Assembly (NCBI RefSeq): GCF_018336915.1
Contig: NZ_CP064923.1
Coordinates: 3,450,001 to 3,482,000 of the forward strand
Length of the DNA stretch: 32,000 nt
Direction of reading: 5' to 3'
Source: Acaryochloris marina S15
GTDB taxonomy: Bacteria > Cyanobacteriota > Cyanobacteriia > Thermosynechococcales > Thermosynechococcaceae
Under the pieces are notes generated by a model that saw only the letters and a program-made list of their open reading frames with translations, made no database searches and was not told where the DNA came from. Both the position numbers and the translations under genes were made by a program. Positions 5,244 through 11,013 of this stretch are shown piece after piece (position 1 is the stretch's first letter; the number at the start of each line of letters is the position of its first letter).

Positions 5244-5615
5244 CACGTCACACTCCTTGCCAGACTGGGATTCAAAGTTAGTTACTGCGCAGAAGATTAG
5301 CACTAGTCTATGGGATTTCAACTCTAGCTCATGCAATCACAGAATCAAACTCTGCTAGAGATATCCTGAAGCTATCACTGAACAGTTCCGAATACCTGTT
5401 TATCATCCACTCAACTGTTAAGGCTTTTGGAAGAAATTTAAAACTCTGAAGGGTATAGGGTAAAGCTCACCGACTTAAAGAGGGAACTTTTTTTCCTGAT
5501 CACAGGCACTTTCCTGGTGTTTCAGGATTCTAGACCACTTTCATAAGATTCAAATTAGTTCAATCTAAATTGATGTCGATCCTCTGTTTTGGCTACTCAG
5601 AGCTGGCCATGTTCT

Positions 5616-7562
5616 TCAATCTTTTGTTTTACCCGGTACTTTATATGCTCCTTGAACGGTGAATTTATCAGGGTTACCAATTAGATAGTTTTCCAAAGCT
5701 ACTGGAGAGGTAGCGATCGCATCCGTCTTAATTAACGTCTCTTCTCCCACACTTTGAAAACACGTCGTTACGAATTCAGAGCACATCATAGCTTTTCTAT
5801 TGCCCACGGTTGCAATAACTTCTTGCCTAATGTTTGCCAGCAAAGTTTTTTTGACTCTTTCTAAAGTCAGCTTTGTTACCGTGGCTGCATCTGAAACTGA
5901 ATCTAATGATTCGGTTGCATAGTCCTGCGGCAAGTTCACGCCTTCATCCGTTGCTAAGTTTGCAATATCCTTAATTTGAATTCCTTTTATTCCGCACGCC
6001 TCAAAGGCATGAATATTGCGACACATCCATTCATAGTCTTTTGCATTCAGTGCATCCACTAACTCACCCTGATTGAGCGCTGTTTTCTGCTTTTCTGTTA
6101 GCCTTTTTCCGTATTTTTTAGCCCGCTTTCCATATTGACTACTCCTTGGTCCTGGCACTGCACAATGCGCTTTTGAATATCCCAAATCAGCTAGTGTAAT
6201 CCAGCGAGCGATGCCGACCGCAGCCTTGGCTTGCGTTTCATCGTTTGGTCGGTATATCACAAACACCGTATCGTAGTGACCACCATCTTTTTTCTTAGCA
6301 TGAGTAGAAATATCAGCTAAACCAACTCTTTGGACTTTCTCTCCTCCAGTCGCTTCAGCAAATGTACTATTACCGATATATAGAGCTGCATGGCCACTCC
6401 ATTTAGATCCCATCCCCCCTTTTAAGAACTTCTGTCCCATGACTGGTGTAGTTGAGTGTTCTAGATCTTTGCGAATAGCGACATCACCTGGTTGTAGGCT
6501 ACCCGTATCGAGTTCAGTTAATGTGCCTACCCAAGCTTTCTCGATTTTGTTGCTTACAGATGTTCTTTCCCCCTTCCGAGGAGGCGCCGCTTCCAGCATG
6601 TTCTTAAATTGTTTTAAGGTGATTGGATCTTTTACCTTAACCTTAGATTTATTAGAGTCTTGCTCTAATCTCTTGAATTCCTGAATTGCGCTCCCACGGG
6701 CCGATTTCTTATTTATCTCCACTTCACCTGTAATCTGGGTGTTACCTAACGTACGTTGGTATTGCTGAACCAAATCTATTGCGTCTTTGCGCTCTAAGGC
6801 TCTCTGGACAATCTCTTTCCCCGAACTTGTGATGGATGGATGCCTTTGGACCGTTGAGTTCTGCTGGATAACATGGGTCAATTCATGGGCAATCAACTCT
6901 TGGCCCACTTGAGATTTGGGTTGATATGCGCCCTTCTGAAAAAATACATCCTGACCCGTTGTAAAAGCCCTTGCTTGAATGGATTGATTTAACTGATCTG
7001 ACTGGGAATCCGTATGAACACGGACCCCACTAAAATCTGCCCCCATTGCTTGGCCCATGGATCGCTGTAATCCTTCCTCCAAGGGTTGTCCACTGCCCCT
7101 TTTGCTATTGATAGCAGACTCTAAATCTGGTGATACGCCTCTACTTGCCATAGCTTGCCGACGTTGAATTAAAGCACCAAGCTTTTCTGACTCATGTCCA
7201 TGCTGGACGGGCTTTCCTTGAGTCGGATGTGTAAAAGTAGAAGAATTGATGTGCTGAACCACTTGAGAAGCGGTGCGATCGGCTTCTTGTTCATACTTAT
7301 CTCCTGGCTGTCCAAGGGTTAACTTTCGCTGCAGCCCAGGTTGCACCAACTCGCCATTGAGATTGGGAACCTTGTCCATCCAGGGGGTTCCTAGCCGCGC
7401 CCATTTCTCCTGTTGCGCTTTCCATTCAGCTAAACCTTCTTCATTCGATTTAGCATGGATGGTGGGAGGTAATGGTGCTGTTAATTGAGTTTTTACAGGT
7501 GATTTTGCCTGAGGTATAGGTTTAGATTGAGGCTTTTTCACATAAGAAGCATAAGTACGCAC
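5616..7562 (-). CDS. DUF4157 (HExxH) domain protein with a C-terminal permuted papain-like (YaeF/YiiX, NlpC/P60-superfamily) domain; putative polymorphic toxin/effector
   Basis: DUF4157 signature strings are present: GDKYEQEADRTASQVV and PLEEGLQRSMGQAMGADFSGVRVHTDSQSDQLNQSIQARAFTTGQDVFFQKGAYQP...LIAHELTHVIQQ. The HELTH codons lie at 6873-6887. The C-terminal half has GDVAIRK...SGHAALYIG...FAEATG...VFVIYRP...MMCSEFV, with His391 before Cys594, which is the permuted order. Confidence 0.8.
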   Translation of the reverse strand: MRTYASYVKKPQSKPIPQAKSPVKTQLTAPLPPTIHAKSNEEGLAEWKAQQEKWARLGTPWMDKVPNLNGELVQPGLQRKLTLGQPGDKYEQEADRTASQVVQHINSSTFTHPTQGKPVQHGHESEKLGALIQRRQAMASRGVSPDLESAINSKRGSGQPLEEGLQRSMGQAMGADFSGVRVHTDSQSDQLNQSIQARAFTTGQDVFFQKGAYQPKSQVGQELIAHELTHVIQQNSTVQRHPSITSSGKEIVQRALERKDAIDLVQQYQRTLGNTQITGEVEINKKSARGSAIQEFKRLEQDSNKSKVKVKDPITLKQFKNMLEAAPPRKGERTSVSNKIEKAWVGTLTELDTGSLQPGDVAIRKDLEHSTTPVMGQKFLKGGMGSKWSGHAALYIGNSTFAEATGGEKVQRVGLADISTHAKKKDGGHYDTVFVIYRPNDETQAKAAVGIARWITLADLGYSKAHCAVPGPRSSQYGKRAKKYGKRLTEKQKTALNQGELVDALNAKDYEWMCRNIHAFEACGIKGIQIKDIANLATDEGVNLPQDYATESLDSVSDAATVTKLTLERVKKTLLANIRQEVIATVGNRKAMMCSEFVTTCFQSVGEETLIKTDAIATSPVALENYLIGNPDKFTVQGAYKVPGKTKD

Positions 7563-7824
7563 TATCCACTTTCCCCCATAAGAGTTTCAATCTACTTGCA
7601 ACCCATGCTAATCCCTAAAAAATAACTACGGTGGTAGATATCTAACGGACTGAAAAGTAATACAAATACTATTCAGTCTGCCTAGGAAAAATAGATATCG
7701 TGCGACGCAGCTCAATGGCAGAATAATGTCAGATATTTCTATGCCCTGAAAGTTTTTTTATCAAAGTATTCCAAGGGATTTATGGGCTGCAATACGTGCC
7801 TAAATCGAGTAACTCTGAAGTTCC

Positions 7825-10800
7825 CTATGATTGAACTTCTGAAAGTTGAGAGGATTCCAGCGTTCCTAAAGATCGATAATTATCTGTTTCTCGGAGGCGT
7901 TGACTCAGAAATCGGCAAATTTCCAGAATAATGTGGGGCCGCTGGGTCATCAGGCTAATAAACCGATTTTTCTCTAGCTTTAGCAACGTGCAGTTTTCTA
8001 GGGCAATGGCTCCATCCCAATGGGGCGCATCATCAAATAGGGCCACTTCCCCAAAATATTCACCCACAGACAGCTGCTTTAAATCCCTGGACTGGTCATC
8101 AATGTCTTTAATAATTTGGACCTTGCCTTCCGCAATGATGTAGAAATATGTGCACCAACTGCCTTCTGAGAAGATGGTTTCTCCAGCCAGTTTTTGCTCC
8201 TGTTCAAGGGTTTGGTCAATCAGCAACAGCTCATCCAGAGATAAATTCTTGAAGAGGGCAACTTCCTTGAGCAACAGCAGGCGTTTCATAAATTGATTCG
8301 TAGGTAAGGGGTCTGGATCAACCGACAGAAAAATCTGTTCCGCCACGGTTTTAACGAGGGGGTCTGGATCGTTGACTAAAGCAGAGGGGACACCCGCTAG
8401 GGCGATTAAAGCCCCGATCCGAATCCATCGATCCTGAGTTTCTAAGGCTTCTAACAGTAATTTATACCCTTTATCTCGCATCCATTGTGGTTCAACGCAA
8501 CTTCGTCCGCTGACAGGCTCTTTTTTAACCACCTGTTCTAGCACTGGAAGCAGAGGCAACACAAAGCGACGATTTTTCAGAGAAGCTAAGGCTTCGACTG
8601 CACTGGCTAAATCCTTTTGTTCATTGGTACTGAGGATGCGATTGATGGCATTGACCGTTCGATCATGGCCCAGGCAGGCCAGAATATAGAGCACTTTTTG
8701 CAACAGTCGATTGTGAAAATCTTCAATCGCCAAGGCTAGGGGTTGCCAATTGGGATCTGTACTGGGGATTTGCTGCTGCCATTTACGGGTATGGACGAGT
8801 TGCTGGAACTCAGGGGCTAGATGCTCATACAAGATCTTACCGGCCTGACGATTTCGCACCTGTCCTATGGCTGCGATCGCAGTATTCACTACGTCCGTAT
8901 CATTCGCAGATAAACTCTCTTGGGCCATCAGCAATCCCGGCTTGCCATAGGCGGGCAAAATCTTAGCTGCCTGCTGTCGGACTCGAGAATCAGGATCTTC
9001 AAATCCCAGGGCAATGTGGGTGGCATAGTCCGGGACATGGACTACTCCCAATAACTTAAAGGCAGCAGCTCGAACCAACGGCGCAGGATGATCGAGGGCC
9101 GTAATAGCGATATCCGCTAGATCTCGATCCCCAGCTTGGCCTAGGGTGGCAAGGATAGCCAAGCTCTCTTGCTGAATACCCGGATCGCCCTGGATCAGCA
9201 ATTTCGTTAGCAATGGCATTAAGCTTCGATCTTGGCTGCAGGCGATCACCCGCACCACGGCTTGACCCGCTGCTTCAGAAAGGTCTGAATACCAGATTTG
9301 ATCACAGGTGGCTTGCAGGGTCTCATCCATTTGGCCCACTTGATCTACAGCGACTGCTGCTAAGGGCCGTATGGTTGGATCCGCCTCCGTTAAGAGGGGT
9401 TGAAGTTGTTCCGCCGTAAAGGGGTAACGATTGGCAATCAGAATTTCTAAGGCGGTGGAACGGAGCGGCCCAGAGGCAGTCTGCAGGCAATCTTCAAAAA
9501 TTGCGACGGTTTCTGGATCTGGATTAGTGCTGAATAGGCGAACAATGGCCGTTTGCAGATCTGGATCGTCCTGCCCTAGCAATGGCTGTACATCTAAATA
9601 AAACTGGCTGGGTTGCCCGAGCTGGGTTGCAAACTCCAGACCCTTGATTTGGGTGTAGCGATCGCTATCTTTGAGCAAGTCGCGAATCACTGCATTGGAC
9701 TCTGCTGGGAACTGGGCCTGGACATTGCCCAGCTCATCCAAATTAATGGTGTCCGAGCGGATCATTTCTTCTAGACCCTGGGCATAGTACTTGCCCATGG
9801 GTAAACGCAGACCAAATAAAACGCAAGTCAAGCCGATGGCAATCCAGGAAATTTGAGCCAAGCTCAGGGTGTGATGACAGATCCAGAGGAGGCAGCCCGC
9901 TGTGGTTAAGCCCACCGCATAAAAGAAGCCATCGCTAAGGGTTCGAATGCGACCTAAAAACTCCCGAGGGACCGCATTATAGTTGAGCTGATGGACGGGG
10001 ATATTGATGCTTTTGTAGAGGCCATCTCCATTGATATGGAGGGCGATGGCAGCCGGAAGGCTGGTTTGCAGGACAATGCCAAACAGACCAAACAGAGTGG
10101 TTAGGGGATAGACCACATTCATGCGGGCGACCCCGACCCAATGGAGGAGCGGGCGAGTAAAGCAATAGAGCACCAGCACCTGAATCACGCTAACGCTCAC
10201 CCGCATCAAGCCTAAGAAGCCCGTGAGGGCATCTTCCGTAAAGTTATCGGCATAGATACTGAACCATAAAAATTCCGCGGACAGGTAGATAATCACCAAC
10301 AAGAAGCTGCTGGCGGCCAAAAACAGCATCAGCGGGTAACGCTTCACCAAGTCGGGAAAAGTTTTTAGGGCTTCAATCATGCCCACATTGTCTGTTTTGC
10401 CGACGGTTTCAATTTGGCGTTGGGTGTTTTCCAGGAAAAACAGCTGTGCGATCGCAATCCCAAACACAACGGGTAACCCCAGCAATAGCTCTCGGGTAGA
10501 AAAGAAGTGGGACAACAACGCCGTCAATCCGCCCCCAATTAGGGTGCCAGCGGCCTGGGCCATGCCAATAAATGGGGCATACCGCTTATAGTCCAGAGCC
10601 GAAAAATAATCCGTTAGTAAACTGGCATAGAGAATATTGTTATGAAAGTCCCACTGAAAAAAGACCAAAATCAGGACGATATAGTAGGTAACGAGTCCCG
10701 TTTCTGCCAGCAGGAACCACATACCGACAGCCATAACCGCAGCCAACATCAGCATGTATCGAAATAGCTGGGGGCGGCTGTATTGATCTACTACTTGCGA

Positions 10801-11013
10801 GAACAACGCATAGGCAGGGATTGAAAACAGGCCGATCAAGATAAAGGCTAAGGGCAATCCATCGGCACCCACATGGGTGAGAAAGAGTGAATTAGCCACC
10901 GCCATCTCAATGACGCTATAGGTGAGTACCACCATGGCCAAAAGCAATAGCTGGGCCAGACGTCCCAATTTCCATGGGGACGAACCAGACGGAAGCTCAG
11001 CTAAATTGACCAT
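7825..11013 (-). CDS. Fusion protein: NTT/TLC-like (MFS-type) transporter domain + HEAT repeats + C-terminal cyclic-nucleotide-binding-like domain
   Basis: Residues 1 to about 405 contain about 12 TM helices and resemble ATP/ADP-translocase-like carriers. Residues about 430-900 carry repeated PBS-lyase-type HEAT signatures (DHPAPLVRAAAFKLLG, FEDPDSRVRQQAAKILP, VNDPDPLVKTVAEQIF, DPTIRPLAAVAV). Residues 909 to about 1035 form a cNMP-binding fold (FKNLSLDELLLI...GETIFSEG...FYIIAEGKVQI...GEYFGEVALF...). Confidence 0.75.
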   Translation of the reverse strand: MVNLAELPSGSSPWKLGRLAQLLLLAMVVLTYSVIEMAVANSLFLTHVGADGLPLAFILIGLFSIPAYALFSQVVDQYSRPQLFRYMLMLAAVMAVGMWFLLAETGLVTYYIVLILVFFQWDFHNNILYASLLTDYFSALDYKRYAPFIGMAQAAGTLIGGGLTALLSHFFSTRELLLGLPVVFGIAIAQLFFLENTQRQIETVGKTDNVGMIEALKTFPDLVKRYPLMLFLAASSFLLVIIYLSAEFLWFSIYADNFTEDALTGFLGLMRVSVSVIQVLVLYCFTRPLLHWVGVARMNVVYPLTTLFGLFGIVLQTSLPAAIALHINGDGLYKSINIPVHQLNYNAVPREFLGRIRTLSDGFFYAVGLTTAGCLLWICHHTLSLAQISWIAIGLTCVLFGLRLPMGKYYAQGLEEMIRSDTINLDELGNVQAQFPAESNAVIRDLLKDSDRYTQIKGLEFATQLGQPSQFYLDVQPLLGQDDPDLQTAIVRLFSTNPDPETVAIFEDCLQTASGPLRSTALEILIANRYPFTAEQLQPLLTEADPTIRPLAAVAVDQVGQMDETLQATCDQIWYSDLSEAAGQAVVRVIACSQDRSLMPLLTKLLIQGDPGIQQESLAILATLGQAGDRDLADIAITALDHPAPLVRAAAFKLLGVVHVPDYATHIALGFEDPDSRVRQQAAKILPAYGKPGLLMAQESLSANDTDVVNTAIAAIGQVRNRQAGKILYEHLAPEFQQLVHTRKWQQQIPSTDPNWQPLALAIEDFHNRLLQKVLYILACLGHDRTVNAINRILSTNEQKDLASAVEALASLKNRRFVLPLLPVLEQVVKKEPVSGRSCVEPQWMRDKGYKLLLEALETQDRWIRIGALIALAGVPSALVNDPDPLVKTVAEQIFLSVDPDPLPTNQFMKRLLLLKEVALFKNLSLDELLLIDQTLEQEQKLAGETIFSEGSWCTYFYIIAEGKVQIIKDIDDQSRDLKQLSVGEYFGEVALFDDAPHWDGAIALENCTLLKLEKNRFISLMTQRPHIILEICRFLSQRLRETDNYRSLGTLESSQLSEVQS

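Follow-up and report, generated by a model that had tools for sequence, protein, structure and literature searches.

Within a 32,000-nucleotide stretch of the Acaryochloris marina S15 chromosome (contig NZ_CP064923.1, positions 3,450,001 to 3,482,000; hereafter the window) lies a minus-strand gene for a 648-residue protein that joins an N-terminal DUF4157 module to a putative cysteine-enzyme domain. The open reading frame (ORF) is a complete coding sequence with no internal stop codons and an overall ratio of nonsynonymous to synonymous substitution (dN/dS; this and all later values of dN/dS and synonymous divergence are Nei-Gojobori estimates among three orthologs) of 0.36-0.44. An identical protein (P0001) and two syntenic orthologs (P0002, 89%; P0003, 83%) share the position of the start codon, and three diverged strains have kept the frame open together with every predicted catalytic residue and every HExxH residue. 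The protein has neither a signal peptide nor a transmembrane segment (the maximum hydropathy over 19 residues is 0.79); the absence of a signal peptide had also been reported by a first-pass annotation of this DNA. In the C-terminal half the recognisable motifs follow in the order GDVAIRK (residues 359-365), SGHAALYIG (389-397), FAEATG (401-406), VFVIYRP (433-439) and MMCSEFV (592-598); this order, like the positions that the same annotation had assigned to the reading frame, the HELTH motif, His391 and Cys594, proved exact on re-reading. The exact 648-residue protein is on record from Logan assemblies only, though its same-chromosome neighbours QUY40815.1 and QUY40823.1 are in NCBI; the deposited annotation of the gene may use another start codon or call a pseudogene. 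Coordinates of all features are collected in Table 1.

Table 1. Features of the gene and of the segment that holds it, in window coordinates.
Feature	Residues	Positions	Strand	Basis or remark
Complete coding sequence	1-648	5616..7562	-	648 aa, GTG start, plus stop; orthologs share the start
N-terminal region (leader)	1-159	7086..7562	-	BLASTP alignments from residues 1-2
GDKYEQEADRTASQVV motif	87-102	7257..7304	-	Recurs upstream of HExxH in homologs
DUF4157/eCIS_core domain	160-237	6852..7085	-	Pfam PF13699
HELTH (HExxH zinc-binding-type motif)	226-230	6873..6887	-	Motif reading
Variable linker (module junction)	238-333	6564..6851	-	End of similarity, indels, high dN/dS
C-terminal putative effector domain	334-648	5619..6563	-	phmmer family, AlphaFold2 model, Foldseek neighbours
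His391 codon, predicted catalytic His	391	6390..6392	-	Family conservation, hhalign
Glu403 codon, predicted third triad member	403	6354..6356	-	Family conservation, hhalign
Cys594 codon, predicted nucleophile in MMCSEFV	594	5781..5783	-	Family conservation, AlphaFold2 helix start
Lineage-specific helical insert	496-586	5805..6077	-	Alignment, AlphaFold2
Strain-variable segment (gene and both intergenic regions)		5308..7825		blastn homology breaks

The N-terminal module and its junction

The DUF4157 assignment of the first-pass annotation, including the HExxH motif, is borne out by a match to PF13699 (eCIS_core, formerly DUF4157) with an E-value of 2.4e-32 and 111.4 bits (gathering cutoff 22), in an alignment that spans positions 1-78 of the 79 in the profile. 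DUF4157 is the core marker of extracellular contractile injection systems (eCIS) and is found at the N-terminus of eCIS toxins (Geller et al. 2021, PMC8213781). HExxH was present in 117 of 117 N-terminal homologs. Upstream of it, the GDKYEQEADRTASQVV motif (which contains GDKYEQEAD) lies outside the Pfam eCIS_core model. Residues of about 85-100 had been read earlier as part of the DUF4157 signature, and though the Pfam model does not reach them, the motif can be counted as a true companion feature of DUF4157 because [YFW]E[QRK][EHQ]AD precedes HExxH in 112 of the 117 homologs. The leader ahead of the domain is rich in Pro, Lys, Gln and Ser and is common to other DUF4157 proteins: many BLASTP alignments to Acaryochloris and related homologs start at its very beginning, with 50-67% identity. 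A precedent for such a leader comes from AlgoCIS, in which the cargo proteins Cgo1 and Cgo2 sit in the tube lumen and consist of an N-terminal domain, DUF4157 and a C-terminal domain (PMC8894135); their N-terminal domain is needed for loading into the tube (preprint 10.64898/2026.05.27.728243). By analogy, the leader may act as a loading or recognition sequence.

A homolog search with the full protein, made against 5.8 billion proteins, gave more than 5,600 matches, of which P0001, P0002 and P0003 alone covered the full length; the remaining matches covered its first 25-50%. BLASTP similarity to other DUF4157 proteins ended between residues 230 and 270 in 108 of 119 cases, directly after HExxH, and alignments began at residues 1-2; the shared module therefore consists of the leader plus DUF4157 (residues 1 to about 240). 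Beyond the junction, the 106 homolog C-termini that could be scored fell into 70 mutually unrelated groups, among which the C-terminal domain of the window protein (hereafter the warhead) was a singleton. Some of the other C-termini contained Pfam domains: ribonuclease, Endonuclease_NS_2, calpain and aldo/keto reductase. The warhead in turn has other front ends. Two other proteins carry eCIS_core before it, 13 of 37 relatives have signal-peptide-like leaders, and one relative each has Phage_base_V, Peptidase_M23 with PG_binding_1, OmpA with PG_binding_1, or PTPase. The C-terminal half is thus not always paired with this N-terminus, and the modular architecture that had been proposed for the protein holds: at the level of sequence the modularity is proven, with both modules recombining freely. 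The relative with Phage_base_V comes from a metagenome-assembled genome of Planctomycetota (L012:567-2689) and consists of a gp5/VgrG-type oligonucleotide/oligosaccharide-binding domain, a long low-complexity linker and the warhead; its gene is followed by a 119-residue ORF that is a candidate immunity gene, and then by a gene for an extracytoplasmic function sigma factor.

Divergence among the orthologs follows the same division. dN/dS was 0-0.2 in DUF4157, 0.23-0.35 in the warhead core and 0.22-0.33 in its insert, and rose to 0.74-1.14 in the linker, which also has indels and a dN (0.22-0.27) far above that of the flanking modules. Synonymous divergence was 0.01-0.13 in the N-terminal module and 0.16-0.47 in the warhead, a difference of up to about 8-fold (window protein against P0003). 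Because synonymous divergence is far lower in the N-terminal module than in the C-terminal domain, the two modules appear to have different histories, indicating a mosaic gene. Judged by these ratios, the gene is functional and under purifying selection. This bears on the idea that it is a decaying, non-functional remnant, an orphan cargo left behind when an injection system was lost. Several facts would suit such an origin: the gene has an orphan location without partner genes, the genus came out without eCIS in a published survey, the exact protein is in Logan assemblies only, and a related strain has a truncated second copy. Against it stand the frame kept intact in three diverged strains, the retention of predicted catalytic and HExxH residues, and the low dN/dS on both sides of the linker (0-0.2 in DUF4157, 0.22-0.35 in warhead and insert), and decay is a very improbable account of the gene.

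The C-terminal domain: family, fold and possible substrate

A Pfam scan of the C-terminal half gave no significant family, and word-indexed homolog searches, run with this half and then with a family profile, returned almost nothing. The family emerged from an exhaustive phmmer search with residues 330-648 against 1.84 billion cluster representatives, which yielded 38 representatives (22 with E<1e-10), most of them matching the query in two stretches (query positions of about 10-160 and 260-315) that flank the insert. The family recurs in Planctomycetota, Verrucomicrobia and cyanobacteria, and its motifs are PGDILLKK, GS..T.HA.LY.G, AEA, VYR, YS..HC, AK.RA, MMCSEFV and P..LEDYLN. Over 33 aligned domain sequences, the residue at position 391 is His in 32 and Cys594 is kept in all 33, while position 403 is Glu in 19 and His in 11 (one or the other in 30/33); Gly359, Asp360, Lys365, Tyr462, Glu624 and Gly638 are invariant. 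From this conservation a His391-Glu403-Cys594 triad is predicted. A scan of a genome collection with an 11-sequence subset of the family gave three loci, where no secretion system was present nearby and no downstream gene recurred.

Two members of the family deserve separate mention. One (P0153) was recorded in a transcriptome of the marine diatom Synedropsis (MMETSP) and in JGI data, and could reflect either bacterial contamination or eukaryotic acquisition. The other is a second, partial warhead copy in a related strain, 80% identical and located at the end of a Logan contig (SRR12447953; L003:1-783). It begins with FAEATGG, which corresponds to residue 401 and so lies past the predicted catalytic His; ahead of this start, four codons into the contig, is an in-frame stop. 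The copy adjoins cellulose-synthase-type genes (a BcsB-like carbohydrate-binding module and GT2/MshEN) and may represent either an orphan C-terminal cassette or an assembly break.

Placement of the family relies on profiles and on structural models. The first-pass annotation had read the domain as a permuted papain-like enzyme, with His before Cys, and the conservation of His391 and Cys594 bears out that order. It had further named the YaeF/YiiX group (Peptidase_C92), and here a place in the permuted NlpC/P60 clade is supported while membership of C92 itself is not: the NCBIfam YaeF model (NF008552) matches the His motif locally with an E-value of 8.6e-5 and 21.8 bits against a cutoff of 279, and one relative (P0133) aligns to positions 2-99 of the 166 in Pfam Peptidase_C92 (PF05708) with 25.7 bits, short of the cutoff of 27. 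For the window protein the Pfam scan gave no match to Peptidase_C92. In other relatives the N-terminal, His-containing part aligns below cutoff to positions of about 60-102 of the 105-position NLPC_P60 profile (PF00877); that the His part falls at the C-terminus of this profile is evidence of permutation drawn directly from sequence. Pfam LRAT (PF04970) matched faintly in a single relative (best E-value 0.18). Searches of the PDB chains with the full protein and with the family profile gave nothing significant, only sub-threshold matches to the NlpC/P60 His motif. The expectation that profile searches would return DUF4157 and C92 or NlpC/P60 was therefore realised very strongly for the former and weakly, below cutoff, for the papain-fold link. 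By the curated criteria the C-terminal domain is neither C92 nor LRAT, and on present profiles it is a distinct family without a Pfam model, probably within the permuted NlpC/P60 clade.

AlphaFold2 modelled residues 334-648 from the 33-sequence alignment with a mean predicted local distance difference test score (pLDDT) of 85.4 and a predicted template modelling score (pTM) of 0.84, and modelled the corresponding domain of P0122, a natural relative that is free of the insert, with a pLDDT of 94.8 and a pTM of 0.92. In both models a helix starts at the position of Cys594; His391 is on a beta-strand and the insert is helical. This layout of Cys and His fits the papain arrangement. Foldseek against the PDB with the window protein's own domain model, insert included, gave no significant match and no useful ranking. 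With the P0122 model the top five matches were PLAAT/HRASLS enzymes aligned over their full length (PLAAT3, AdPLA, HRASLS3 and PLAAT4), the best being 4FA0 (probability 0.87, TMt 0.57); after these came about 20 classical NlpC/P60 domains, aligned over 60-70 columns in the His half only, as is expected because one half is permuted. Ranks 1-15 were all PLAAT or NlpC/P60 domains, and all had E-values of at least 0.12, which makes for a consistent ranking but no significant match. A human PLAAT3 query sequence matched the PDB entries 4FA0, 4DOT and 7ZOM at an E-value of about 1e-88. An hhalign comparison placed His391 on His23 of PLAAT3 and residue 403 on His35 (18 columns, probability 17.6%), and the 12-residue spacing from His391 to Glu403 equals that from His23 to His35.

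A permuted NlpC/P60 (papain-like) fold, as predicted, would make the warhead a cysteine hydrolase or acyltransferase. Its substrate could be a peptidoglycan stem peptide or a phospholipid, of which the former is slightly more likely. In the phospholipid case one would expect a phospholipase A or acyltransferase of the PLAAT/LRAT kind, which, once injected, would damage the membranes of the target from their cytoplasmic side. The PLAAT-like topology of the models suggests such a substrate, given that PLAAT/HRASLS phospholipase-acyltransferases fill the first five places among the structural neighbours, that the spacing from His to the second His/Glu is the same as in PLAAT3 and that one relative has the faint LRAT match. 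Solved structures of YiiX-type permuted NlpC/P60 proteins show lipid-binding pockets. In addition, eCIS inject their cargo into the target, from whose interior peptidoglycan is out of direct reach. The PLAAT matches may, however, only mirror a common permuted topology, because Foldseek aligns sequentially, and the window protein has no PLAAT-style C-terminal membrane anchor. The fusion partners of the relatives suggest peptidoglycan instead: they include PG_binding_1, M23 and OmpA-like modules, and many of the relatives have signal peptides, all of which points to the peptidoglycan layer. A phospholipid substrate is therefore a tenable alternative, though a tentative one.

The insert sets the window protein apart from most of its family. 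Compared with 32 relatives, its lineage-unique residues are 496-541 and 548-586 (about 85 residues, rich in Ala and Leu), in place of which the relatives carry about 10 residues; residues 542-547 align to the R..P.. segment of the family. The first-pass annotation had described a Lys-rich insert of about 120 residues (about 465-590). An insert is indeed there, but it is shorter and of another composition: helix 477-493, which is the Lys-rich part, and the YS..HC motif (462-467) are pieces of the core that the family conserves. Only the window protein, P0002, P0003 and P0121 have the insert, and among 1.84 billion proteins none matched the insert by itself. AlphaFold2 predicts it as helical with a pLDDT of about 58-85. 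Because it is conserved under purifying selection, the insert is probably functional, and it is perhaps a lid, a specificity element or an autoinhibitory element.

Genomic setting and the question of delivery

The gene stands alone between a Cu-ATPase gene and a gene for a HEAT/cyclic nucleotide-binding membrane protein, in a slot that differs among strains. In blastn comparisons with A. marina NIES-2412 and Acaryochloris sp. 'Moss Beach', homology stops at 5261/5307 and resumes at 7826. In NIES-2412 (L015:4768-4989) the slot is empty, with 222 nt between the Cu-ATPase and HEAT genes, and in 'Moss Beach' (L014:2749-5000) the same two genes enclose 2.19 kb of unrelated DNA. That DNA holds a 119-residue ORF and short ORFs of 85 and 87 residues that resemble a split Uma2-type endonuclease gene. 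The GC content is 42.5-44% in the variable segment and about 50% in its flanks. No tRNA, terminal repeats or transposase were found flanking the segment. Given the homology breaks and the empty site in NIES-2412, the gene occupies a strain-variable slot and is dispensable.

The other genes of the window encode a ShlB/FhaC-type Omp85 protein, CorA-like and ZIP-like transporters, a P-type ATPase (identical to the NCBI A. marina protein QUY40815.1), pyruvate kinase, GAPDH, GST, a ClC channel, EPSP synthase, GatB (identical to QUY40823.1) and glycosyltransferases. Directly upstream of the effector gene, the HEAT protein (7825-11013, minus strand; 1062 residues) begins with a hydrophobic, multi-pass half, contains HEAT repeats and ends in a cyclic nucleotide-binding domain, and it is kept in all the Acaryochloris loci examined. 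At 13-1287 on the plus strand is a ShlB/FhaC/HecB-type two-partner-secretion (TPS) transporter with Omp85 and POTRA domains, which has 593 residues in relatives and is cut here by the window start; neither the window nor the syntenic loci show a gene for a TpsA-like exoprotein next to it. Delivery by this transporter, four genes away, was considered and rejected, since the effector has no signal peptide or TPS domain and the transporter is still present at the NIES-2412 locus, which is without the effector. An anti-phage defence or phage-gene reading is likewise unsupported: searches with PADLOC and PHROGs gave no match.

The leader and DUF4157 recur elsewhere in the genus. Among the top matches, Acaryochloris paralogs that share the leader form at least 10 clusters from five strains, on chromosomes and plasmids, and one (P0030, 433 residues, with a different C-terminus) is on the same chromosome as the effector gene. 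In other Acaryochloris genomes, close homologs of the N-terminal module lie dispersed over chromosomes and plasmids, often beside transposases. One of them, in Acaryochloris sp. CCMEE 5410 (AFEJ02000006.1; L010:1-12498), is part of a toxin island that also holds an RHS/YD-repeat protein of more than 4,296 residues, a transposase and a TIR-domain protein; here the gene for this 630-residue DUF4157 protein is followed by a CdiI_5-family immunity-type gene, with a second eCIS_core protein about 10 kb downstream.

The reading that we consider probable is that of a polymorphic-toxin-type effector, in which leader and DUF4157 target the protein to a packaging or export route and the putative permuted NlpC/P60 warhead acts on an amide or ester bond of the envelope. 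The leader would guide the protein to a machine for packaging or export, and once delivered the warhead would cleave or transfer such a bond in a cell-envelope molecule. Export and toxicity, like the substrate and the role of the insert, are here what we infer, and a number of observations weigh against the proposal. First, every structural or profile link of the warhead to NlpC/P60, LRAT or C92 lies below significance or below curated thresholds (Foldseek E-values of at least 0.12). Second, no eCIS, type VI secretion system (T6SS), phage-tail or other secretion gene was found among the 20 neighbouring genes scanned in the 32-kb window, and neither a contractile injection system (CIS) gene or other secretion gene nor an immunity gene at the syntenic loci or at another DUF4157 protein with the same warhead. 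Third, there is no immunity-sized ORF: the intergenic regions of 279 and 262 nt hold ORFs of 22-31 residues only, and no immunity gene was called at the syntenic ortholog loci. Over 32 kb these results agree with the earlier statement that no injection-system, T6SS or immunity gene is visible nearby. Fourth, the survey of Geller et al. (2021, Supplementary Data 6) lists eCIS in 0 of 2 Acaryochloris genomes, compared with 3 of 4 for Pseudanabaena. A literature search on Acaryochloris and contractile injection systems found no paper.

The same observations could be explained by a self-directed enzyme that is not exported at all and instead takes part in stress-induced lysis, for example as an autolysin or a remodeller of membranes, or has a housekeeping role in the envelope. 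Precedents exist: in Streptomyces and in filamentous cyanobacteria, CIS that are cytoplasmic or anchored to thylakoids bring about the death of the cell that makes them. The protein has no signal peptide, its gene has no adjacent immunity gene and the surveyed Acaryochloris genomes have no eCIS; Geller et al. (2021, PMC8213781) point out that immunity genes are missing for many eCIS toxins, which may help to lyse the producer, and in mycobacteria DUF4157 proteins adjoin the housekeeping NlpC/P60 gene ripC in the absence of an eCIS (PMC12067865). However, the gene is dispensable and its site is empty in NIES-2412, which argues against a housekeeping role, its front end is common to about 70 unrelated C-termini, nuclease types included (the signature of an offensive polymorphic toxin), and the relatives of the warhead include fusions with spike and secretion modules. 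On balance a self-directed role seems improbable, and an exported effector remains the preferred reading. A bolder variant of that reading, to which we would give a small chance, is that the shared leader serves delivery or release by a route other than a recognisable eCIS, that DUF4157 is a delivery-independent toxin-handling module (for processing, autoinhibition or refolding), and that the C-terminal half is a new permuted NlpC/P60 warhead family with a helical regulatory insert.

Relation to known systems

DUF4157-tagged proteins are the main bioinformatic handle on eCIS cargo, and eCIS are being engineered for protein delivery. The locus described here offers a compact tagged effector with no injection system in view, which could help to test an eCIS-independent function of DUF4157, and it defines a rare putative cysteine-hydrolase warhead family without a Pfam model, for which His391, Glu403 and Cys594 are the catalytic candidates.

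At the level of the whole protein, the closest comparison is with AlgoCIS Cgo1 and Cgo2 and the eCIS-associated toxins (Geller et al. 2021), which share with it a hydrophilic N-terminal region, DUF4157 with HExxH, a linker and a variable C-terminal effector. The leader, conserved among paralogs with different C-termini, resembles the system-specific loading sequences of Cgo1 and Cgo2. Unlike these two and most eCIS-associated toxins, which are encoded in or beside a CIS operon, the window gene stands alone, and its warhead family is a different one.

The warhead can be compared with three groups of enzymes. It shares with PLAAT/HRASLS/LRAT proteins (4FA0, 4DOT, 7ZOM, 7C3Z, 7ZOT) the order of His before Cys, a PGD-type strand, an H-x-x-x-Y-x-G strand, a second predicted catalytic residue 12 positions on and a Cys that opens a helix in the models and belongs to an (N/M)C(E/S)(H/E)F-type motif. 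It differs from them in having MCSEF rather than NCEHF and no C-terminal anchor, and the Foldseek E-values of 0.12-0.23 are not significant; the family of the warhead adds YS..HC, the AK.RA helix and P..LEDYLN, and the window protein adds its 85-residue insert. With YaeF/YiiX (PF05708/NF008552) it has in common the permuted papain-like order and the His-motif match, but the scores are below cutoff, neither model aligns the Cys half, and no YiiX structure was among the Foldseek matches. Classical NlpC/P60 enzymes (RipA/RipB, Spr/MepS, SagA) and secreted amidase effectors resemble it in the His-strand motif and the modelled beta-sheet half, and the fusion of warhead relatives to peptidoglycan-binding and M23 modules is a further likeness. 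In the classical enzymes Cys comes first, so that the residue order of the warhead is reversed; about 60-70 columns align, and the Pfam matches are below cutoff.

Polymorphic toxins such as Rhs and contact-dependent inhibition (CDI) proteins provide the more general comparison. The window protein differs from them in that no cognate immunity gene is adjacent and no trafficking domain is recognised except DUF4157. It resembles them in its conserved N-terminal module, hypervariable C-termini, sharp junction, mosaic divergence and strain-variable loci, as well as in the partial orphan C-terminal copy elsewhere and in the one paralog locus with a CdiI_5-type immunity gene. Taken as a whole, the protein belongs to the known class of DUF4157-tagged modular effectors and is of the expected kind rather than a surprise.

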